A model generated the notes under the pieces. That model made no database searches. It was given only the letters and a program-made list of their open reading frames with translations, and was not told the origin of the DNA. A stretch of 24,160 nt of DNA from Ignavibacteriales bacterium (GTDB lineage: Bacteria; Bacteroidota; Ignavibacteria; Ignavibacteriales; Melioribacteraceae), in assembly GCA_027080245.1 (NCBI GenBank), contig JALWSN010000214.1:1-24160 (forward strand), written 5' to 3'. The position numbers were made by a program, and so were the translations under genes. Position 1 is the first letter of the stretch. Each line of letters starts with the position of its first letter. Shown here one piece after another: positions 6,378 to 16,487 of this stretch.

Positions 6378-7745
6378 ATGCAAAACAAAGTGGCAAAACT
6401 GATTGAAATTGAGTGGGAAAAACTTCGCTGGTTGCAAGGTGAATTAAAGCAAATAAGCAAAGAAAACATCGAGAAAATAAAAAACTCCTTCCGGGAAAAC
6501 GGTTTTGTGCAGCCGTTTTTTGTATGGAAAGATGACTCTGGCGAATATTGGATTCTGGACGGGCATCACCGCATAAAAGTTTTGCGTGAACTTAAAGAAG
6601 AGGGAGCGGACGTGCCGGAAAAGTTACCGGCAATTGAAATTGAAGCCGAAAGCAGAGACGCCGCGGCTAAGTTGGTTTTGATTTATTCAAGTTCTTATGC
6701 GGAAATAACAAAAGACGGTTTGGAAAAATTTGCAAAAGATTTTGACCTTGATTTAGAATCTCTTAATAAGGAAACCGATTTAATTGGTATTGACTTGGAT
6801 AGCTTAATAATTGATTTACGCCACGGGCAATTGACAGAAGAACAATTAGATGATGCACCTTCAGTACAAGAAAAGACATTCTCTCAAACCGGTGATATTT
6901 TTTTGCTCGATAACCGGCATCGGGTTATGTGTGGAGATAGCACAAAAAAAGAGGACGTCGAAAAATTAATGGACGGTAAAAAAGCGGATATATTTTATTC
7001 GGATCCGCCTTACAATATTGGGTTAGATTATAGAAATGGAATGAGGAATACACAAGATAAATACACAAAATCAAAAATTTTTAATGATGAAAAATCCGAA
7101 ATAGAATATAAAGAATTTATCTCAAATGCATTAAGAATCGCTAAATTATTTATGAAAGAGGATGCTCATTATTTTTATTGGTGTGATGAAAAATATATTT
7201 ATTTATTTCAAGAAATATTTGCCGAAAATAATATTAAAAACGAAAGAGTTAATATTTGGATTAAAAATACCTTTAATGTTATTCCTCAGATTGCTTTTAA
7301 TAAAATTTACGAACCTTGTATTTATGGGATTACAGGAAAGCCTTATTTAAATAAAGAATTAACTAATTTTTCAGAAATATTAAACTCTGAGTTAACCGGC
7401 AAGCAAATAATAAATAAGATTTTAAATTATTTAAATATTTGGATCGAGAAAAGAGACAGAACAGATAAATACGCACATCCAACACAAAAACCAGTTCAAT
7501 TACATTACAAACCAATAAAGAGATGCTCTACAATAATGGATATTATTTTAGATTTATTTTTGGGCTCCGGTAGCACATTAATTGCCGCCGAACAAACCGG
7601 GCGTGTTTGTTACGGAATGGAAATAGACCCGCATTTTATTGATGTTATTTTAAGACGCTACAAAAAATTATATCCTGACGCTGAAATAAAATGCCTTAAC
7701 AGAGAGTTTGATTTCGGAAAATTATTCGAGGGATTGAATGGCTGA
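6378..7745 (+). CDS. ParB-like domain fused to beta-class N6/N4 DNA methyltransferase
   Basis: N-terminal SFRENGFVQP...ILDGHHR (ParB/Srx); catalytic DPPY precedes HPTQKP and SAM-binding LDLFLGSGST. Confidence 0.92.
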   Translation: MQNKVAKLIEIEWEKLRWLQGELKQISKENIEKIKNSFRENGFVQPFFVWKDDSGEYWILDGHHRIKVLRELKEEGADVPEKLPAIEIEAESRDAAAKLVLIYSSSYAEITKDGLEKFAKDFDLDLESLNKETDLIGIDLDSLIIDLRHGQLTEEQLDDAPSVQEKTFSQTGDIFLLDNRHRVMCGDSTKKEDVEKLMDGKKADIFYSDPPYNIGLDYRNGMRNTQDKYTKSKIFNDEKSEIEYKEFISNALRIAKLFMKEDAHYFYWCDEKYIYLFQEIFAENNIKNERVNIWIKNTFNVIPQIAFNKIYEPCIYGITGKPYLNKELTNFSEILNSELTGKQIINKILNYLNIWIEKRDRTDKYAHPTQKPVQLHYKPIKRCSTIMDIILDLFLGSGSTLIAAEQTGRVCYGMEIDPHFIDVILRRYKKLYPDAEIKCLNREFDFGKLFEGLNG

Positions 7746-8274
7746 AACCAAACTCATTGACGTTCATACTCTTGCTCAATTCTGGGGTGTAGATGTTCGC
7801 ACGGTGCAGAATTATGCTGACGCTCGTTACGCACAACCTCCACTTCCGAGAGAGGCGCGCGGGAAATATGATTTCGTCAAAGCAATGAAATGGATGTATG
7901 AATACCAAAAAAAGAAAATAGAGGTATTAGAAACTTCCGGCGACGAAAAACTCCACGCACTCCGAATGCGCGGGCAAATAATTAAGAATAAAAAAGACGA
8001 AATTGCACTTAAGCGGGAGCTTGGGCAATTGCTCGATAAGAAAACGACATTGATTGCTTGGACGAACCAAATCAATGTGATTAAGAATTATCTTAATAGT
8101 CTCAAATATGACCTTACCCGAGACCTTGAGGATATTGTTGGCAAGGATGTTTTCACTCTGATGAAAGAAATAATCGAGCAAAACATTGACCGGATAATGG
8201 AAATAATTTCCAATCTTGAAATTGAGAAATATGTAATTGATGAAGAAAAACTATTGGAAGAAGAAGATAAATGA
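7738..8274 (+). CDS. terS: Terminase small subunit (Nu1-like)
   Basis: N-terminal wHTH LAQFWGVDVRTVQNY, coiled-coil middle, immediately upstream of large subunit. Confidence 0.8.
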   Translation: MAETKLIDVHTLAQFWGVDVRTVQNYADARYAQPPLPREARGKYDFVKAMKWMYEYQKKKIEVLETSGDEKLHALRMRGQIIKNKKDEIALKRELGQLLDKKTTLIAWTNQINVIKNYLNSLKYDLTRDLEDIVGKDVFTLMKEIIEQNIDRIMEIISNLEIEKYVIDEEKLLEEEDK

Positions 8275-10259
8275 ATCCGGCGTTAAAAGAATATAGCAAA
8301 TATATTGACGACATTTCTCAAAAATATCTTTACGGAAATGTTGAAGAAGTAATGCGCCGGAGCTTGCAAATTCTGAAACCTCCTGCACGAATCCCAATAG
8401 TGGAATGGGCGGAGCGGAATATTATTCTTGACGAAACTTCGCCTATTCCGGGACCGTTCCGAATTATCAATTCGCCACATCTTAAGGAAATTTTCGAGGC
8501 AATCGAAGATCCGGAAGTTCACAAAATTACCATTATGGGCTCGGCACAAATGGGAAAGACATTGCTTGAAATGATTGTGTGGGCATACTTTGTTGACCAA
8601 GATCCGTCGCCAATGTTAATAATGCACCCTAATGATAGGGAAGTAAGAAGTTTTGCGCTACACAAATTGGAGCCGCTGATTAACAACTCTGCAATATTGC
8701 GGGAAAAGGTTGCAAAGAAAAAGCGTGGAAGTTCGACGGACAGTTCCACACGCCTCAAAATGTACCCGGGCGGGTGGACGGAAATTATTTCCGGTACGGC
8801 AAAGGGAACTACACGCCAGCGTTCCGTGCGCAGAATAATTGCAGATGACATCGACGCAATTGAGATGTCTGTTTCTTCTGAAGGTGATCACGTGATGAAT
8901 CTTGAGAAGCGGACGGCGGCGTACAAATACAATTATCTGCACATACTCATTTCCACGCCGCGCGTGGAAGGAGAAAGCCGTATTGAGGCGCGCTACAAAG
9001 AAGGAAGTATGGGAAAATATTCCGTCAAATGTCCGCATTGCGGAACGGTGCAATATTTTCAAGAAGACCAGCTCGTTTGGGATAAGGATTTCGATTTAGT
9101 CGGCAATGTGATTAAGCACTATCCTGAAACAGCAAAGGTTGCCTGCCGTGGCTGTGGTGCTGTCTTTTCGGAAAAAGAAAGAATCGAATTACTTCGAAAT
9201 GGCTTCTACGTCCACGAGCATCCCGAGCGTAAAAGTCACCGCTCCTTTTGGCTCAATCAAATAATGAGCACGCTTTCAGACCTCAAAACAATCGTTGCCG
9301 AGAAAATCCGCGCCGAGCAAGCCTACGAAAATGGTGATGACGAGACTTACGAAAGCTATGTAAACACAACTCTCGGTTTGCCTTACAAGCGCACAAAAGG
9401 AAAGGAAACCGACGCCAAATATTTGATTGACCGCCGTGAGGATTATATTAACATTGACAATCCGAAAATACCGAACGGCGTTCTGCTGATTACCTCTGCA
9501 GTGGATGTGCAGGCGGGAAGCGGCACAAAACCGGCACGCCTCGAAGTTGAAACTTGGGGCTGGGGCTCCGGTGAGGAGGCGTGGATTCTCGACAAATTTG
9601 TTTTGCCGGGCAATCTCGAAAAGGAAGGCGTTTGGACTAAGCTCGATAATTATTGGCGAAACAAAACCTTTGAGAGAGAGGACGGCGTGAAATTGAAAAT
9701 TACACGCAAAGGAATTGACTCCGGTTATCTTACGCAAACGGTTTATGAATTTTGCGCTGGAAAATTTCCGACGCAAAATGTTCTTGCTCTCAAGGGAGCA
9801 GTAAAATACGGAGCTCCACTCGTGCCAAAAAAATTGACGGATGCTAACAACGGCAAAACCGCCTTAATGATGATTGGCACGCAAGCCGCAAAAACAATTT
9901 TATTTAACCGGCTGAATGAAATTAAAGAGCCGGGCAAAAAATATATTCACTTCACAAAAGCATTTTGCGATGTGGAATACTTTGATCAGCTCACTGCCGA
10001 GCACGCCGTAACAAAAACAATTGGAATGAATCAATACATTGTTTATGAGCCGAAAAAACGGGGCTTGGCAAACGAAGCATTGGACTTGCTTGTAATGAAT
10101 TACACACTGATGAAATCGCTCAATCCTAATTTCGAGAGCCTTGAGGCAAGCATTGAAAAACACAAAACCGGAACTAAGCAAGAAGAAGAACCGGATAAAC
10201 CGAAAAAAGCAAAAAGGAAAATCATTAAACCGAGGAAGAATTTTGTAACGGGATTCTAA
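8271..10259 (+). CDS. terL: Terminase large subunit, lambda gpA family
   Basis: GSAQMGKT Walker A, IADDIDA Walker B, ISTP, CPHC/CRGC zinc knuckles, SAVDVQ and IDSGY nuclease motifs, NEALDLLVM. Confidence 0.96.
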   Translation: MNPALKEYSKYIDDISQKYLYGNVEEVMRRSLQILKPPARIPIVEWAERNIILDETSPIPGPFRIINSPHLKEIFEAIEDPEVHKITIMGSAQMGKTLLEMIVWAYFVDQDPSPMLIMHPNDREVRSFALHKLEPLINNSAILREKVAKKKRGSSTDSSTRLKMYPGGWTEIISGTAKGTTRQRSVRRIIADDIDAIEMSVSSEGDHVMNLEKRTAAYKYNYLHILISTPRVEGESRIEARYKEGSMGKYSVKCPHCGTVQYFQEDQLVWDKDFDLVGNVIKHYPETAKVACRGCGAVFSEKERIELLRNGFYVHEHPERKSHRSFWLNQIMSTLSDLKTIVAEKIRAEQAYENGDDETYESYVNTTLGLPYKRTKGKETDAKYLIDRREDYINIDNPKIPNGVLLITSAVDVQAGSGTKPARLEVETWGWGSGEEAWILDKFVLPGNLEKEGVWTKLDNYWRNKTFEREDGVKLKITRKGIDSGYLTQTVYEFCAGKFPTQNVLALKGAVKYGAPLVPKKLTDANNGKTALMMIGTQAAKTILFNRLNEIKEPGKKYIHFTKAFCDVEYFDQLTAEHAVTKTIGMNQYIVYEPKKRGLANEALDLLVMNYTLMKSLNPNFESLEASIEKHKTGTKQEEEPDKPKKAKRKIIKPRKNFVTGF

Positions 10260-10480
10260 TGGAAGAATTAATAGTCCACGAAATAGCGAACATTGCACGT
10301 AATCTCGGCATACTTAATGAGCGGGCATACCGCAACCTTTGCATCCGTATGGATTTCGATAAGATGCGCCGGGAAGGCGTGCGTGTTGAAGAAGCGGAAA
10401 TAATTCTTTCGGAAAAATATTCAAGCGCAAAATCAAAAATTACACCGGAAACTATTCATAGTATTCTTTATCGGCGGTGA
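10259..10480 (+). CDS. Small HTH protein, Mor/late-activator-like C-terminal pattern
   Basis: RNLCIR..F...G...LSEKY...TPETIHSILY; TAATG coupling to terL. Confidence 0.5.
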   Translation: MEELIVHEIANIARNLGILNERAYRNLCIRMDFDKMRREGVRVEEAEIILSEKYSSAKSKITPETIHSILYRR

Positions 10481-10520
10481 AAAAAAATCAAAAAAAATTA
10501 AAATTTTTTTCATTTTTTAC

Positions 10521-10549
10521 TTGACAAACTATAACAAATATGTTATATT
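10521..10549 (+). promoter_or_regulatory. Near-consensus sigma70 promoter of accessory operon
   Basis: TTGACA (10521-26), 17-nt spacer, TGt TATATT (extended -10, 10544-49), A/T-tract UP-like region 10481-10520. Confidence 0.85.
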
Positions 10550-10550
10550 T
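10527..10550. promoter_or_regulatory. Inverted-repeat operator overlapping spacer and -10
   Basis: AACTATAACA-aata-TGTTATATTT; perfect 7-bp arms TATAACA/TGTTATA, 9 of 10 when extended. Confidence 0.65.
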
Positions 10551-10594
10551 GAAGTGTAAAAATTAAGTTCTTAAACAAAATGTAAAACAAAAAA

Positions 10595-10611
10595 CTCTGG
10601 CGACAACAGAG
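10595..10611 (+). promoter_or_regulatory. 5' UTR hairpin
   Basis: CTCTG-gcgacaa-CAGAG, the only G+C-rich patch in the A-rich leader. Confidence 0.45.
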
Positions 10612-10638
10612 GATAAAAAATTCGGTAGGAGGTTTAAA

Positions 10639-11244
10639 ATGAAATTTCAAGACAAAAACTGGGACGAAACTTACGAAGTAAAAAATCCTGAAATATTAGA
10701 AGATGCTCTCGAATATTTTTTGGATTTCGAATTTGAGACGGAGTGGTTCGAAGACAAATATGAATACGACCATACTGCAACAGAAGTAGTAAATTGGTCT
10801 TTAGGGGATATTGAGACCATTTACGAGGTCGTAGATGAAAATGGTCGAGAAGGGCTATTAGATATAGCTTCAAATATTTTTATTCCTGATGCAACGTACG
10901 AAGACGGAGTAGTAGTTTTCTTTTTTTGGGATGGTGTTTCTGTCCGTTGGAGTGTTGCAGAGACGGTAGAAAAAGCAAAAGCAAATGCCCTAATCGATAT
11001 GATTGAAGACAAAGGGTATGAATGCAGATATGAAGAAGGTTCTGATTATATTTTTGTTTCCGGTAGTGTTGCCGAAATGATAGATGAACCTGCTTATTGG
11101 AATCTCGATACAGATGAATTTGCTCCCGAAGAATCAGATGATCCTCGAGATTGGGATAATAATGGAGAATTTTTTCTCTCTGTTTTTGAGATAAATGGAA
11201 AAGGAGAGATTATTATTTCGATTTCAGATTTTTGGGAAAAATAA
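10639..11244 (+). CDS. Highly acidic hypothetical protein; candidate DNA-mimic/anti-defence protein
   Basis: Hand count 54 D+E versus 13 K+R in 201 aa; rich in W/Y/F; AGGAGG RBS; first gene behind strong promoter. Confidence 0.8.
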   Translation: MKFQDKNWDETYEVKNPEILEDALEYFLDFEFETEWFEDKYEYDHTATEVVNWSLGDIETIYEVVDENGREGLLDIASNIFIPDATYEDGVVVFFFWDGVSVRWSVAETVEKAKANALIDMIEDKGYECRYEEGSDYIFVSGSVAEMIDEPAYWNLDTDEFAPEESDDPRDWDNNGEFFLSVFEINGKGEIIISISDFWEK

Positions 11245-11247
11245 TTT

Positions 11248-11318
11248 TTTCTCTCCTGGGCGACATAATCCGGAATTAACCGGGTCCATTACAACAAGGC
11301 GTGCGTCCGGGGGAGAAG
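11248..11318 (+). ncRNA. Putative structured RNA element (long closing stem with inner hairpin)
   Basis: TTCTCTCCTGGGCG (11249-62) pairs with CGTCCGGGGGAGAA (11304-17), 14 bp with three G-U pairs; inner ATCCGG-aattaa-CCGGGT hairpin. Confidence 0.5.
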
Positions 11319-11334
11319 CTTTAATAATTGAGAA

Positions 11335-11354
11335 CCTGTCTGACGGCAGGCAGG
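11335..11354. repeat. REP-like 20-nt palindrome
   Basis: CCTGTCTG-acgg-CAGGCAGG, 8-bp stem with one G-T pair. Confidence 0.6.
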
Positions 11355-11380
11355 TGAAAAATGAAAAATTAAAAATGAAT
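11353..11380 (+). repeat. Heptamer tandem repeat (x4)
   Basis: ggtgaaa aatgaaa aattaaa aatgaat. Confidence 0.65.
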
Positions 11381-11696
11381 GGAACATCTGAATCGAAATA
11401 GAGAGAAATTAGCAAAGCTGCTCAAGGAGCGCAGGGAGGAGCTTGGCTTAACGCAGCAGCAGCTTGCTGAAAAAACCGGTTTCAAACAACCGACAATTGC
11501 GCGGATTGAAGCCGGAAAATTTTTCATAAATACAAAGCAATTATTTGTTTTGTGTGAGGCTTTGAAACTCAGAATTATTTTAAGCGAGTCTGAAAAATTT
11601 GAAATTAAGAAAGAGGAGAAAGATGATGATACTATTTATAAGAAGAAGGCTATCTTTATGGGAATATTATTTATATTATTTCTTTATTTGTCATAG
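11379..11696 (+). CDS. XRE-family HTH regulator (Aca-like position)
   Basis: LKERREELGLTQQQLAEKTGFKQPTIARIEAGK is a canonical HTH_3; hydrophobic C-terminal tail overlaps next ORF. Confidence 0.88.
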   Translation: MEHLNRNREKLAKLLKERREELGLTQQQLAEKTGFKQPTIARIEAGKFFINTKQLFVLCEALKLRIILSESEKFEIKKEEKDDDTIYKKKAIFMGILFILFLYLS

Positions 11697-11904
11697 ATAT
11701 AAAGGGAAATTATTAGCGATATCTTTTGATGAAATAAAAGAAGAAGTTGATAAATGTTTAAAAGAATATAATATTAGAAAGTTTTTTAGAAGAGATAAGG
11801 GTAAAATAGAAATATATTCGGGGGCTAAAAAGATTAAACAAAAAAAGGAAATTAAACTGATTGCTTATGATGATTTGGAGAAAAATAAAAAAAAGGAGAA
11901 TTAA
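11623..11904 (+). CDS. Basic hypothetical protein
   Basis: ATG 11623 with GAGGAG RBS at 11613-18; AT-rich; overlaps XRE gene by 74 nt. Confidence 0.6.
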   Translation: MMILFIRRRLSLWEYYLYYFFICHRYKGKLLAISFDEIKEEVDKCLKEYNIRKFFRRDKGKIEIYSGAKKIKQKKEIKLIAYDDLEKNKKKEN

Positions 11905-11905
11905 A

Positions 11906-12244
11906 ATGGATATCGAAAAATTAAATGATTTACCCGAGCAAATAGTAAAAACATTAAAAGGAAGATTTCCTAAAATATCGGGAAAGACAAAAATACTTTC
12001 GGGATTGAAAGAGGAGATAACAATTCCTGTTTCTGCAGAAAGCAGGGATATTGTTGGACGTAAAAAAATCGAAGAAATGACTATTAAAGAATTAATGCAA
12101 ATTGTAAATGAACCGCAGTTTGATATTAAAGAGAAAAAATATAACCCAATAATAGAATTGGGCGACGATCCAATTTTAGGGTTTAACTACTGTGAGGAAA
12201 GAGATGCTTTATTAATTTGGGAAAGAAATTTATTTGAAAATTAA
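11906..12244 (+). CDS. Hypothetical protein
   Basis: ATG 11906 with AAGGAG RBS, one base after upstream stop. Confidence 0.7.
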   Translation: MDIEKLNDLPEQIVKTLKGRFPKISGKTKILSGLKEEITIPVSAESRDIVGRKKIEEMTIKELMQIVNEPQFDIKEKKYNPIIELGDDPILGFNYCEERDALLIWERNLFEN

Positions 12245-12281
12245 ATAGTTATTAAAACCTTTAAAATCCCTCAAATTTTAA

Positions 12282-12305
12282 AAGGGTGTGAAATTTCACA
12301 CCCTT
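12282..12305. other. Perfect 24-bp palindrome (terminator-like hairpin or dimer binding site)
   Basis: AAGGGTGTGAAA|TTTCACACCCTT is its own reverse complement. Confidence 0.8.
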
Positions 12306-12435
12306 GACCTTCCAAATCTTTCGATTTTCGTCGAAAAACCCACAAAAAAAATTACAAAAAAGATGAATTTTACACTAACGCTCGAAAAAAAAATGTATTA
12401 TATATACGGCGAATTTTTTGGAGATGTTTTTGTAA

Positions 12436-12969
12436 ATGACATTAGAATTCGCCAATCAGACATTATACGCCGGTGCAACTTGGAGTTGGACGGAAGAAAT
12501 TGATGACTATCCTGCCTCAGAGGGTTGGACGCTTACCATTCTTCTCAAACACAATACCGATAATGCGGTAACCTTAACTGCAACGGCTTCCGGTGATGAT
12601 TACGAATTCAATATTAGTGCTGACGACACAAAGCAATTCACAAAAAGAAACTACATTTACCAAGGCATAATCACAAAGACCGGCGAAGTCAATATAATTG
12701 ATGAAGGCGAAGTTGAAATTTTTCCGAAGTTAGATGTTGCCTCTGACCTAAGGACCGATAATGAAATTATTCTCGATGCAATTGTTGCCGCGTTGAAAAG
12801 TAGAGCAACGAAAGAACAGCAATCTATTTCCATTGCCGGTCGGCAAATACAATACCTCTCATTGCAAGAATTAACCGATGCAAAAAAATATTACGAGAGC
12901 TTGGTGGCAAAAGAGAAACGTGTGGCTGCGGGAAAAACCGGCACGCCGAGAGTTCTGGAGGAATATTAA
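12436..12969 (+). CDS. Head-tail joining protein (gpW-like C-terminus) with N-terminal extension
   Basis: C-terminal ILDAIVAAL...QSISIAGRQIQYLSLQEL pattern; position directly before portal. Confidence 0.72.
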   Translation: MTLEFANQTLYAGATWSWTEEIDDYPASEGWTLTILLKHNTDNAVTLTATASGDDYEFNISADDTKQFTKRNYIYQGIITKTGEVNIIDEGEVEIFPKLDVASDLRTDNEIILDAIVAALKSRATKEQQSISIAGRQIQYLSLQELTDAKKYYESLVAKEKRVAAGKTGTPRVLEEY

Positions 12970-14537
12970 TGGGCGTAATGCAAAAAATATCGAACCTTTT
13001 CAAGGGTAAAAAAACGGAAGGCAAACGTGCCTTTCAAGCCGCTACTCAAGACAGGCTAACTTCCTCTTGGACTACCTCTCTCACAAATATCAATTATGAT
13101 ATTCGTGTTGGGAATAAGATTTTACGTTCACGCGCGCGGGACTTAGCCGAGAATGACCCTCACGCGAAAAAGTTTTTGCGAATGCTTGATAAAAATGTAA
13201 TTGGGCCCGACGGATTTGCTTATCGCAATACCGCTTATGATATGAAGAAAAACGCCGACGGTGAATGGGAAAAAGTTTACGATGCGCTGGCAAACAATAT
13301 TCTCAAAGATATGTGGGATGAATGGACAAAGCCGGAAAACTGCACAATTACCGGCGATGTTTCTTTCCGTGAGGCTTCGGCGCTGGAGCTTAAAACCATT
13401 GCGGTGGACGGTGAAGTTTTCTTGAAATTAATTTCAAATAAAAATGCAAATAAATTCGGATTCACTTACCAAATTCTTGACGCGGCTCTTTGTGATGAGG
13501 GCTACAATAGCGTCAATCCTAAGACCGGAAATCAAATTATTATGGGGATTGAATATAATTCCTATATGAAACCGGTTGCTTATTATTTCCGCAAAACGGA
13601 TTCGAAAGAAATTGTTTACAACGGAACTTATTATTCTCAGGATTATGTTCGCATTCCTGCCGAGCAAATAATTCATCTCTACCGGAAAGAATTTGTTGGG
13701 CAGTTGCGCGGGATTTCGTGGTTCTTGCCTGTTGCTTACAGAATGAATATTTTAAAGGGCTATCAAGAAGCGGTTCTTCTCAATGCACGTTCAGCCGCAA
13801 TGAAAACGGGGGTTCTGGTTCCGAAAGATTCAGCAAGCGCATTGACAGAAGCTAATATTGCCGGTGGCGATGAAGACGAAGACGGCAATATTGTTCAGCC
13901 GATAGAGCCGGGTGAGACTTACATTGTGCCAGAGGGCTATGACTGGAATACTTATGATCCCACATATCCTTCCGGTTCGGAGGGACCCTTTACGACTGCT
14001 GTTCTGCAGGCAATTGCGTCCGGTTTCGATGTGGATTATCCAACTTTGGCAAGTGATTTTTCGAGAGTTAATTATACATCCTCGCGCGCTGCCTTGTTGG
14101 ATGCACGGGCGGGTTACAAAATCTTACAGAAATATTTGATTGACCACAAACTTAAAAGAATACACACTGAATTGCTCAATATGGCAATCCTCACGGGAGC
14201 CGTCAATTTGCCGGTTGCTAAAATAGAGAAATTCGACAAACCCGAATTTGTGGGCTACAAAGGCGATTGGGTGGATCAATGGAAAGAGAACAAAGCCGAT
14301 GCTTACGCCGTTCAGAACGGATTGGAAAGCTACGCTAATGTAATTGCAAAGCGCGGTTACAATCTCGAACAAATGGTTAAGCAAATCAAATACGAAAAAG
14401 AATTGTTTGAGAAAAATAATCTTGAATATCCGGGCACGAAAGATTCACCGCAAGAAGAGGAAAATTCAGGAGGCAATCCGACAGACGACTCCATTGAGCA
14501 GGAAGAAAAAAATTATTTAAAACTCTTTGGGAGATAG
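12969..14537 (+). CDS. Portal protein, lambda family
   Basis: LRSRARDLAENDPHA, DGEVF, HLYRKEFVGQLRGISW, DFSRVNYTSSRAALL, WVDQWKE motifs. Confidence 0.96.
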   Translation: MGVMQKISNLFKGKKTEGKRAFQAATQDRLTSSWTTSLTNINYDIRVGNKILRSRARDLAENDPHAKKFLRMLDKNVIGPDGFAYRNTAYDMKKNADGEWEKVYDALANNILKDMWDEWTKPENCTITGDVSFREASALELKTIAVDGEVFLKLISNKNANKFGFTYQILDAALCDEGYNSVNPKTGNQIIMGIEYNSYMKPVAYYFRKTDSKEIVYNGTYYSQDYVRIPAEQIIHLYRKEFVGQLRGISWFLPVAYRMNILKGYQEAVLLNARSAAMKTGVLVPKDSASALTEANIAGGDEDEDGNIVQPIEPGETYIVPEGYDWNTYDPTYPSGSEGPFTTAVLQAIASGFDVDYPTLASDFSRVNYTSSRAALLDARAGYKILQKYLIDHKLKRIHTELLNMAILTGAVNLPVAKIEKFDKPEFVGYKGDWVDQWKENKADAYAVQNGLESYANVIAKRGYNLEQMVKQIKYEKELFEKNNLEYPGTKDSPQEEENSGGNPTDDSIEQEEKNYLKLFGR

Positions 14538-14540
14538 AAA

Positions 14541-16487
14541 ATGAAAATGAAAAAAGAAATTGAAAATTTACGCAACGAGCGGTTTGTAAGCCGCGCGGCT
14601 GTGGTGAAATCCGATATAATCGATGTTAAGAACCGGACAATCAGGACGGTGCTTGCAACGGAAACTCCTGCGGAAGTTTTCGATTGGGAGCGCTGGGAAG
14701 TTGTTCGGGAAATTCTAATGATTACTGACGATTCCGTAATGCTACCGGATAATCGTCAAGTTCCGCTTGTAGATACTCACGTCCGTTCCTCTGTGGAAAA
14801 GCTCAAGGGGTCGATACGAAATCTCCGAATTGAAGGTAACGAGCTTATTGGCGAGACGCAGTTCTCTTCTCTTGCAGAAGACGAGTGGACTAAGGCGCGG
14901 GAGGGACATCTTACAGATGTTTCCGTGGGTTATAGGACTTTCCCCGAAAATACGATCGTCTTAGCTCCGGGCGAAACCGCTAATGTTGGCGGGCGGGAAA
15001 TCAGGAATGATTTTCCGGACAAAAAGACACTGCTCATCCGTACGAAATGGCAGCCTAAGGAAGGCAGCCTTGTAATTGTCGGCGCGGACCCAAAAGCGCA
15101 GTTCCGGAGCTATTTCGAAAGCGAGACGGAAAAAACTACTATGCTCGGGGATTTGAAAAACGAAATAATTTCCGAACTGCAAAAGCAAAGAACCGAAATT
15201 GAGGAAAAAATTAAACATATCACATTTCAAGGAGAGAAAAAAATGGAAGAACCTAAAAACACACTTACGCCGGAGGAAATCCGCAAACAGGAATTGGAGA
15301 GAATCCGTGAAATTGAGGCGCTTAGCCAAAGATTTTTCGGCAAGGCTCCGAATCTCAAAGAAGAAGCGCAGAAAGCGATTCAGGAAGGTAAAAGCATTGA
15401 CGAATTCAGGAATTATATTCTTGACAACTTAGATGCTTCCCAGCCGGTCGAAACTCCGAAAACACAAATCGGAATGAGCAAAAAGGAAATTCAGGAATTC
15501 TCTATTTCACGTGCTATTCTTGCCGCGGCTTCGGGCGATTGGAATATTGCTCCGGGCGAAAGAGAAGCAATTAAGGCAACCGCAGAGGCATTGGGACGTG
15601 AATGGAACGACAAAAAAATTCTCCTGCCTCGTGAAGTTCAGCTCCGTGGCGCAAGGACACTCTATTCCGGCTCTACAGACGGGCAGTATGTTGTTGGAAC
15701 GGACTTGCGCGGAGATGAGTTCATTGAGTATTTGCGCGCAAAAACCGTACTCGGGCAGGCTGGAATGACAATCTTAACCGGCTTGAAAGATAACATCGCA
15801 ATTCCGAAACAGGACGGAGCAGTTTCCATTACAATGGTCGCCGAAGGTTCGGCAGCAACCGCCGCTGATTTGAGTCTTACTCAATTAAGCGCATCTCCAA
15901 AAACCGCAACTGCAAACACTTCATATTCACGGAAATTATTGCTGCAATCTAATCCTTCAATTGACAGCTTAGTAATGACCGACTTGTACCGCCAAATGGA
16001 CATCAAGCGGGATTATATGGGCTTGCACGGAGATGGCGTTGCGCCTAATCCTACCGGCGTTGCAAATACAACCGGTGTTGGCTCAGTAGATATGAGTTTG
16101 GCTGTCGATTGGAGCAAAATTGTTTCTTTCGAAACCGACATCGAAACTGCGAATGCCGACACTCCTTCGCTGAAATGGATTGCAAATCCGGCGGTAAAGG
16201 GGAAACTCAAAACCACATTGAAAGCATCGAACACAGGATTTTTCCTCTGGGAAAACAACGAGATGAATGGCTATCCTGCATTGTGGAGCAGTAATGTTGC
16301 GGCTCAGCATCTTTTCTTTGGCGATTGGAGTCAATTAATGTTCTTAGAGTGGGGCGTTGTGGAAATTATTGTTGATCCTTATACTCACTCCACAAGCGGA
16401 ATAATTGACGTAACAATTCTTGACGAATTCGACTTCATTGTTCGCCAGCCGGGTGCTTTCGCTGTTTCCATAAACGTTGCAGTGTAA
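14541..16487 (+). CDS. Fused prohead protease-scaffold-major capsid protein (HK97 fold)
   Basis: N-terminal LVDTH...DVSVGY (His/Ser protease motifs), E/K-rich coiled coil, C-terminal capsid motifs (SRKLLLQS, FFGDWSQL, VDPY, VRQPGAF); start may be ATG 14547. Confidence 0.92.
   Translation: MKMKKEIENLRNERFVSRAAVVKSDIIDVKNRTIRTVLATETPAEVFDWERWEVVREILMITDDSVMLPDNRQVPLVDTHVRSSVEKLKGSIRNLRIEGNELIGETQFSSLAEDEWTKAREGHLTDVSVGYRTFPENTIVLAPGETANVGGREIRNDFPDKKTLLIRTKWQPKEGSLVIVGADPKAQFRSYFESETEKTTMLGDLKNEIISELQKQRTEIEEKIKHITFQGEKKMEEPKNTLTPEEIRKQELERIREIEALSQRFFGKAPNLKEEAQKAIQEGKSIDEFRNYILDNLDASQPVETPKTQIGMSKKEIQEFSISRAILAAASGDWNIAPGEREAIKATAEALGREWNDKKILLPREVQLRGARTLYSGSTDGQYVVGTDLRGDEFIEYLRAKTVLGQAGMTILTGLKDNIAIPKQDGAVSITMVAEGSAATAADLSLTQLSASPKTATANTSYSRKLLLQSNPSIDSLVMTDLYRQMDIKRDYMGLHGDGVAPNPTGVANTTGVGSVDMSLAVDWSKIVSFETDIETANADTPSLKWIANPAVKGKLKTTLKASNTGFFLWENNEMNGYPALWSSNVAAQHLFFGDWSQLMFLEWGVVEIIVDPYTHSTSGIIDVTILDEFDFIVRQPGAFAVSINVAV

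Follow-up and report, generated by a model that had tools for sequence, protein, structure and literature searches.

What is a small, separately transcribed set of genes doing between the packaging and head genes of an Ignavibacteria phage, and could it serve against the defences of the host? The set in question, called here the cassette, lies in a stretch of 24,160 bp (the window) that makes up the whole of contig C214 of G000, an Ignavibacteriales metagenome-assembled genome (MAG; 2.79 Mb, 636 contigs, 90.7% complete) from a hydrothermal-vent metagenome. A first-pass annotation had described a transcription unit of its own interrupting the packaging and head genes, with a strong promoter under an inverted repeat, a very acidic first gene, a structured RNA, a helix-turn-helix (HTH) gene of the XRE family, two AT-rich genes of no recognised family and a closing palindrome, and had proposed an anti-defence locus of the acr-aca type. 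In such loci (those of Aca1 and Aca2, for example), an anti-CRISPR-associated (Aca) repressor controls an operon of anti-CRISPR (acr) genes, and aca is usually the terminal gene. All parts of the described anatomy were recovered (Table 1), the unit being placed between a conserved 73-aa gene that follows the large terminase subunit (TerL) and a gpW-like head-tail joining gene; the palindrome alone had to be reassigned, as described below. We consider it highly probable that this unit is an autoregulated, mobile and dispensable cassette. Whether it has a counter-defence function is close to an even call, for which the acr-aca-like anatomy, a CRISPR-repeat-like RNA and the acidic first gene are the reasons. 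That the RNA acts as a decoy for Cas6b or for Cascade is possible but doubtful.

A mobile cassette and its putative operator

The promoter of the cassette (TTGACA-17-TATATT, with a TG extension) was the top-scoring site in an 8-kb scan (7000-15000), a region where the overall count of promoter-like sites was not above that of shuffled sequences. It follows an A/T-tract region, and comparable A/T tracts, then TTGACA, were seen in other genomes of the Melioribacteraceae. The inverted repeat reported over the -10 was confirmed as a palindrome (TATAACA-N4-TGTTATA) spanning the spacer and the -10 element, and this putative operator was found once, at the cassette's own promoter. Exact scans for the promoter-operator sequence in viral, metagenome and genome collections returned no match.

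Further insight came from two other loci, one on L022, a 2,158-bp metagenome contig, and one in G026 (G-numbers denote genomes of the family Melioribacteraceae, 166 including G000). L022 shares three islands with the window: 10479-10644, holding the A/T tract, promoter, operator, hairpin of the 5' untranslated region (5'UTR) and ribosome-binding site (RBS), at 92% identity; 11247-11316, the structured RNA, at 94% identity; and 11373-11680, the XRE gene and the start of the next open reading frame (ORF), at 84% DNA identity. The genes between the islands differ: the first gene of L022 encodes an acidic protein of 83 aa, its last gene (118 aa) is not that of the window, and there is an additional gene of 130 aa. 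The 83-aa protein has a 20-aa C-terminal motif as its only common part with ORF1, and the start and first ~20 codons of ORF3 align in frame with a small L022 ORF before the two diverge. Since the flanks of L022 are unlike those of the window phage and belong to a different backbone, the module moves between backbones.

The operator changes together with the regulator. In L022 it is TATAACAAATTTGTTATA, a perfect 9+9 (18-bp) palindrome, and in G026 it is TACAACAAATATGTTGTA, located in the spacer of a promoter in the equivalent place (TTGCAT-17-TATATT), where the same palindrome has been changed symmetrically on both half-sites. This promoter drives an unrelated 123-aa first gene, with the gene for an XRE protein 52% identical to that of the window immediately after it. 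Such a pattern is what the site of a dimeric repressor looks like, and it is our main support for a predicted Aca-like autoregulator. Across the three loci (window, L022 and G026), the XRE genes are 52-87% identical and the first genes are unrelated. The guilt-by-association search proposed with the first-pass annotation thus came out as expected there, with XRE gene, promoter and operator travelling together while the neighbouring genes change.

The XRE gene is on the same strand as the cargo, with no need for an intervening promoter. Three close relatives of its product were found among 5.8 billion protein clusters, and the orthologues compared were P0006 (the best match, 87% identical, 79 aa, on L022), P0007 (67%) and the G026 protein. 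The last ~25 residues of the window protein (11599-11696) are hydrophobic and absent from its relatives, a lineage-specific read-through into a T-rich stretch; both this tail and the 74-nt overlap of ORF3 with the 3' end of the XRE gene arose because of a 2-nt indel relative to L022. Among solved structures, the protein matched DBP48, MBF1, HipB, HigA and 434 Cro, with no entry named Aca at E<=1e-3, and no Aca sequence set was compared. In the phage library, its matches were phrog_3 and phrog_8, labelled 'transcriptional repressor/regulator'. A related XRE protein, 57% identical over the HTH, was seen in a Chlorobiota MAG (L128:3555-4192), paired with an upstream gene of 116 aa that appears RelE/HigB-like when its sequence is read by eye, no family search having been made. 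A palindrome-like site near the L128 gene was considered and set aside, as it belongs to this apparent RelE/HigB-type toxin and XRE pair and hence to a different family.

TerL relatives were present in 10 of the 165 other family genomes, and the nearest, at 80% TerL identity, is a prophage in G022. Homology of G022 to the window stops at 10471; it starts again where G022 has, in the same place, a degenerate version (AAGGTGCAAAAATTTGAACCTT) of the 24-bp palindrome, and runs through the conserved gpW leader (window 12311-12404, 79% identical). The cassette is therefore delimited as 10481 to ~12281, a mobile modular unit in a variable slot. Between the stop of the 73-aa gene and the palindrome, G022 carries a 224-aa homing endonuclease (NUMOD4/HNH/AP2; HNH_3) instead of the whole unit, and so the cassette is dispensable. 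The perfect 24-bp palindrome had been read as the closing element of the cassette; because the cassette-less G022 has its degenerate copy, it belongs to the backbone. Variability among relatives, which the acr-aca proposal had called for, was seen beyond G022 as well, the slots of G025 and G057 carrying further small ORFs and that of G026 a ~4.4-kb block of other small genes. This last block (L016:5143-9410, on G026:C18) separates terL from the 73-aa gene; a DUF1937 protein and a DnaJ-type zinc-finger protein are among its products, and it terminates in a mini-cassette of operator, 123-aa orphan and XRE gene. The flanking genes are conserved: homologues of the 73-aa gene follow TerL in G022 (64%), G025, G133, G026 and G057, and the gpW-like gene has homologues in G025, G026 and G057. 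The G+C content falls to 22-30% at both ends of the cassette, compared with ~40-50% in the flanking genes.

A structured RNA with part of a CRISPR repeat

The structured RNA noted after ORF1 was borne out by folding (z = -4.6 to -4.7), none of 200 shuffled sequences folding as well. In the consensus fold, an outer stem of 17 bp is accompanied by a CC-N10-GG mini-hairpin and an inner hairpin, CCGG-AAUUAA-CCGG. The four stem substitutions between the window and L022 copies all keep pairing, and several G-U pairs are valid on the + strand only, which, from two sequences, is a weak indication of conserved pairing. A search of the whole window against Rfam (E<=1) returned no family. An earlier BLAST match of the RNA in G032 was discarded, as it falls inside an integrase-like gene when the translation is read.

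To our search of this region (101 nt against the 166 family genomes), G092 responded with 109 matches spaced ~74 nt apart. These form a CRISPR array with the 37-nt repeat GTTCTTATTCATTGTCCATTACAACAAGGATTGAAAC, which follows a complete type I-B operon (cas8b-cas7b-cas5b-cas3b-cas6b-cas1b-cas2b-cas4b) and runs in the direction that puts ATTGAAAC at the end of the repeat. The RNA holds, in sense and unpaired, nt 14-29 of this repeat. Cas6b cleavage of 37-nt I-B repeats yields a fragment of 29 nt and the tag AUUGAAAC of 8 nt (PMC3479195), and since the cut falls after nt 29, the phage match terminates exactly at the cleavage site, without the tag. G088 and G091 have related repeats (GTTCTTTTACATCTTCCATTAAAACAAGGATTGAAAC), and G136 has a solitary one; the segment common to the phage, together with the tag, is the part conserved among the repeat variants of the family. 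The local alignment score of the core was 32, against 12.6 +/- 2.1 in shuffled sequences and 24 for the next best tile of the window. We put the probability that a 16-mer matches a CRISPR repeat of the family by chance, as a rough figure of our own, at ~1e-4 to 1e-3. This repeat-like core is the strongest pointer to CRISPR in the cassette.

The RNA is non-coding and on a phage contig, with no cas genes among the annotated genes of the window. Neither a crRNA-like (CRISPR RNA-like) handle nor a pseudo-spacer was found in it; no ATTGAAAC tag adjoins the core, and the 3' strand of the stem comes next. The matching repeats are nearly unstructured, and the mini-hairpin CC-AUUACAACAA-GG is the single element that their predicted folds have in common with that of the RNA. 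A promoter within ~250 bp upstream of the RNA, as expected of a solitary repeat unit, is absent, the nearest good one being that of the cassette, ~730 nt upstream; the single nearer promoter-like site on the + strand (11186-11213) scores 9/12. Exact scans of metagenome, genome and viral collections for the 20-mer CCGGGTCCATTACAACAAGG found none, and in eight other genomes the short BLAST matches of the window all fall outside CRISPR arrays.

Several other likenesses were noted. On L022, downstream of the XRE gene (L022:1514-1532), a repeat-like CTTCCATTACAATCGCC has 11 nt (TTCCATTACAA) of the I-B repeat core. The G136 copy stands alone in a chromosomal intergenic region and may be what is left of an array, or else a solitary or crRNA-like repeat of the host; the gene upstream of it appears by eye, without a search, to encode a YoeB/Txe-type toxin. 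The idea that the core mimics a Cas13b repeat was dropped, as it has no GTTG 5' end and the real match is to the I-B repeat. The likeness of 11319-11336 (GCTTTAATAATTGAGAAC) to the ends of the G000 repeat is weak (p 0.02, not the top tile), and it was rejected because the AATTGAGAA motif belongs to the hairpin element that follows the RNA.

That hairpin, before the XRE gene, is of host type. The same hairpin with similar flanks occurs after genes, in intergenic positions, in G155, G055, G080 (twice) and G062. It has no U-tract after it, and its most likely role is that of a terminator or punctuation element between genes. The element is a GC-rich palindrome of 22 bp, ACCTGCCTGCCGGCAGGCAGGT, which in the window and at L288, L289, L290, L291 and L293 tends to have (G)AATTGAGAA and GAAAAATGAAAAAT-like tracts on its flanks; it appears to be a family-specific terminator or a punctuation element like the repetitive extragenic palindromic (REP) ones.

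Cargo, host and the rival explanations

ORF1 has 54 D+E against 13 K+R residues, a net charge of ~-41 and 33 F/W/Y (16% aromatic). It retrieved only itself among the 5.8 billion clusters and 1.84 billion representatives, an exhaustive HMMER search included, and nothing among viral contigs; its AlphaFold2 model has a predicted local distance difference test (pLDDT) score of 38 and is unusable. ORF4 likewise found only itself among the 5.8 billion clusters, and in the protein atlas it found viral hypothetical clusters only, with weak scores; atlas searches with ORF1, ORF4 and the 123-aa gene of G026 were uninformative. These deep cluster searches covered ORF1 and ORF4, ORF3 being covered by profile libraries. 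None of ORF1, ORF3 and ORF4 had a match in Pfam, PHROG, NCBIfam or PADLOC, and no dedicated Acr library was searched.

A self-matching spacer, which the first-pass annotation had suggested looking for, was found: the first, leader-proximal spacer of G000 agrees with ORF1 in 31 of 37 positions, and no better match to it occurs anywhere in the G000 assembly; the best of 300 shuffled spacers reached 26. As first, second and third codon positions are all among the six mismatches, the spacer probably derives from a diverged relative of ORF1. A crRNA made from it would pair with the ORF1 mRNA, as is needed for type III targeting. The array, short as assembled, stands on contig C632 (L021), where cas1b-cas2 are followed by the leader and repeats of 30 nt (GTTTTAATCGGACTATTTTAGAATTGAGAT); a second cas1 is on C173, and cas6 followed by the N-terminus of cas10 lies at the end of contig C614 (L284:8750-10108), which suggests a type III effector served by an I-B-like adaptation module. 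A PD-T4-6-like gene adjoins this cas6. When the Cas proteins of G092 were compared with G000, Cas1 and Cas2 alone found matches, and the spacers of G092, G088 and G091 had no convincing match to the phage or its relatives. The spacer match links phage and host and shows that the CRISPR system of the host sees the first gene of the cassette; it is not by itself a demonstration of anti-CRISPR activity. An imperfect match of the newest spacer to ORF1 is also a direct phage-host link for an uncultured lineage.

In the model that we favour, the near-consensus sigma-70 promoter would drive ORF1 and the 70-nt RNA, and the host-type hairpin would lower read-through into the XRE gene, ORF3 and ORF4. 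An XRE dimer would bind the 18-bp palindrome over the -10 and close the promoter once enough protein is present, as Aca proteins do. The cargo would most likely act against host defence: the RNA would display the 16 nt that precede the Cas6b site on a rigid stem, as a decoy for crRNA processing or Cascade assembly, and ORF1, being very acidic, may mimic a nucleic acid. At its most specific, and this we propose tentatively, the RNA would represent an RNA anti-CRISPR of a new kind, a minimal 16-nt Cas6b-proximal decoy without scissile junction and tag on a stem scaffold, which might trap Cas6b or nascent Cascade unprocessed. It would be co-transcribed with orphan cargo under an Aca-like XRE protein, in a promoter-RNA-regulator chassis that would travel among Ignavibacteria phages and swap its protein genes.

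A number of observations weigh against a counter-defence role. The anti-defence proposal fared well as regards the accessory, variable unit and its acr-aca pattern, but nothing in it resembles a known anti-defence gene: cargo without homologue or informative fold gives no anti-defence activity readable from sequence. The XRE gene is not terminal, as aca usually is, ORF3 and ORF4 coming after it, and its clade may also serve as antitoxins. As to the RNA, two copies are known and they show no double-sided covariation, and a covariance model run on 151 family genomes gave one weak match (E 0.046), judged to be chance. The repeat match covers 16 of 37 nt (43%), lacks the AUUGAAAC tag and fails the thresholds of the SRUFinder solitary-repeat rule, which asks for >=90% identity over >=50% (partial) or >=90% (full) of the repeat (PMC10651486). 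The matching repeat family was found in only 4 of the 166 family genomes (G092, G088, G091 and G136); neither G000 nor its genus yielded it, and the single assembled G000 array has a different repeat. In the sequencing runs, the locus was found in DNA contigs of one hydrothermal-vent study only, with no RNA run holding it and no variant of the cassette.

Part of this evidence would also suit a generic moron with some other function, such as host takeover or superinfection exclusion, in which the RNA is a transcript-end, processing or stability element and the repeat identity a chance likeness or a relic of recombination. We regard this as a serious though minor possibility. The cargo proteins are orphans, a hairpin follows the RNA in both the window and L022, as a 3'-end or punctuation role would have it, and the repeat match is partial with its cognate not found in G000. 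What this explanation accounts for less well is the 48-nt RNA core, identical, loops included, in two cassettes whose XRE genes are 84% identical, which argues for sequence-specific recognition and not for the stem alone. The match is moreover to the stretch of the repeat next to the Cas6 site, which is conserved; it reads in sense and terminates exactly at the cleavage site, and the architecture is like that of acr-aca loci.

The regulator raises two further alternatives. Its best curated matches are antitoxins (TIGR03070 at 7.8e-12, and HipB), HigA and HipB are among its structural matches, and the gene is overlapped by the basic ORF3, whose start is conserved in L022; the cassette could on these grounds be a toxin-antitoxin or abortive-infection module, with a HipB/HigA-type antitoxin and autorepressor and with ORF3 (or ORF4) as the toxin, and the RelE/HigB-like partner seen by eye in the Chlorobiota genome would agree. 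We nevertheless think such a module improbable. Both antitoxin models score below their curated cut-offs (45 bits against 71.65 for TIGR03070, 29.7 against 79 for HipB NF007271), and no match to a known toxin family was obtained for ORF1, ORF3 or ORF4 in Pfam, NCBIfam or PADLOC; a match to a toxin-antitoxin family is what the first-pass annotation had named as counting against its own anti-defence proposal. The XRE gene of G026 has no downstream partner, the varying gene there being upstream, and ORF3 and its L022 counterpart diverge after ~20 residues. As XRE proteins of phages are often Cro/CI-like regulators (phrog_3, phrog_8 and 434 Cro, the last at 4e-4, were matched here) and the unit lies just 5' of the head genes, a switch governing the lytic-lysogenic decision or the late genes was also weighed. 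It is very improbable: in the nearest relative a homing endonuclease stands where the whole unit would be, so that the unit is dispensable, the cassette is also in the unrelated backbone of L022, and the operator occurs at no other promoter than its own.

Genomic setting and comparison with known systems

All genes of the window are on the + strand, with a DnaB-like helicase among them. The ParB-N/methylase fusion next to terS may provide self-protection of the phage, and would then be a second possible counter-restriction gene on the contig. A low-complexity tract at 2311-2358 (GAAGAATTAAAAATGAAGAATGAAGAATGAAGAATTAAAAATGAG) has short matches of 83-97% identity in more than 20 family genomes and is probably a common A-rich leader or intergenic motif, not an att site. 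There is no tRNA in the window, and its DNA matched none of 50,697 phage records.

Table 1. Features of the cassette and its surroundings; positions without a locus name are those of the window
Feature	Position	Strand	Remarks
ParB-N + N6/N4 DNA methylase fusion	6378-7745	+	directly 5' of terS
TerS	7738-8274	+	
TerL, lambda gpA type	8271-10259	+	GpA_ATPase 4e-59, GpA_nuclease 7.5e-65
Conserved 73-aa gene, phage backbone	10259-10480	+	stop codon is the left boundary of the cassette
A/T-tract region, UP-element-like	10481-10520	+	5' of promoter; inside the 92% block shared with L022
Sigma-70-type promoter TTGACA-17-TATATT, TG extension	10521-10549	+	score 11/12; identical in L022
Operator palindrome TATAACAAATATGTTATA, putative XRE site	10530-10547	.	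spans spacer and -10; kept in L022, symmetrically changed in G026
Small 5'UTR hairpin CTCTGGCGACAACAGAG	10595-10611	+	read from sequence; one change in the L022 copy
ORF1, 201-aa very acidic, aromatic-rich orphan	10639-11244	+	isoelectric point (pI) 4.05
Protospacer-like site in ORF1	10961-10997	-	first (leader-proximal) G000 spacer
Conserved structured RNA, 70 nt	11249-11318	+	intergenic (11245-11378); -31.6 kcal/mol
CRISPR-repeat-like core GTCCATTACAACAAGG	11284-11299	+	unpaired; 16 nt of the G092 repeat
Host-type palindromic hairpin ACCTGTCTGACGGCAGGCAGGT	11333-11355	+	before XRE gene
XRE-family HTH protein, 105 aa, putative Aca-like autorepressor	11379-11696	+	HTH_3 2.9e-12
ORF3, 93-aa basic orphan	11623-11904	+	pI 9.67; RBS AAGAGGAGAAAG before ATG; AT-rich
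ORF4, 112-aa orphan	11906-12244	+	RBS AAGGAGAA; AT-rich
Perfect 24-bp (12+12) palindrome	12282-12305	.	10-bp stem; -16.1 kcal/mol; z = -4.5
gpW-like head-tail joining gene	12436-12969	+	head module resumes; phrog_5774 6e-33
Lambda-family portal	12969-14537	+	
Capsid fusion	14541-16487	+	
Homing endonuclease of G022	L019:132-806 (G022:C55)	-	occupies exactly the cassette slot
Solitary full-length I-B-family repeat GTTCTTTAAGACCGAATTCCATTACAACAAGGATTGAAAC	L266:389-428 (G136:C325)		chromosomal, intergenic, stands alone

Among known systems, acr-aca loci are the closest in plan. They have in common with the cassette a strong promoter under an inverted repeat, an operon that includes a small HTH gene, a regulator and operator that are kept while adjacent small genes are swapped, and a place among structural genes from which relatives can dispense with the unit. 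The cassette differs in that no gene of it is homologous to a known Acr, two genes come after the XRE gene, the host is an Ignavibacterium and repression is predicted. Most descriptions of anti-CRISPR loci and of RNA anti-CRISPRs come from Proteobacteria, Firmicutes and Actinobacteria; if our reading is correct, acr-aca logic would extend to Ignavibacteria phages of hydrothermal vents, and the cassette would supply a new Aca-like regulator and operator pair for guilt-by-association mining together with orphan candidate inhibitors, one of them strongly acidic. Phage morons and homing-endonuclease slots are similar in being independent units with ends of lower G+C between conserved late genes, and the nearest relative does carry an HNH gene; the cassette, unlike these, has its own regulator and a conserved RNA and recurs in another backbone. 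With acidic DNA-mimic proteins directed against restriction or CRISPR, such as Ocr, ArdA, AcrF2 and AcrIIA4, ORF1 has in common its low pI, its charge and its position as the first, predictedly strongly expressed gene, but there is no sequence similarity, the model is too poor to compare folds, and the likeness of this 201-aa, 16% aromatic protein is one of composition only.

For the RNA, two described classes are relevant. RNA anti-CRISPRs (Racrs) such as RacrIF1 are near full-length copies of repeats that are bound and cleaved by Cas6, and Racr candidates often adjoin acr genes (Camara-Wilpert et al. 2023, PMC10651486). The window RNA resembles them as a phage non-coding RNA with CRISPR-repeat sequence in sense, away from cas genes, in an acr-like context and under a strong promoter. 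It differs in copying less than half of the repeat, with no 8-nt tag, inside a 17-bp stem scaffold, and in being co-transcribed far from the promoter, after a protein gene. Cracrs, with which the CreA/CreR of hosts can be grouped, are viral crRNA-like regulatory RNAs with a repeat-spacer-repeat plan, a handle and a pseudo-spacer partly complementary to a cas or toxin promoter (bioRxiv 10.1101/2024.10.29.618823). They are repeat-derived phage RNAs that divert Cas proteins, and their candidates include type I-B; the window RNA, in contrast, has no recognisable handle or pseudo-spacer. If functional, it would represent a new design and not a member of either class. Should the decoy model hold, the Cas6-proximal third of a repeat on a scaffold would suffice for a phage to interfere with crRNA biogenesis, and current repeat-similarity searches, which ask for coverage of at least 50%, would overlook such a design by construction.

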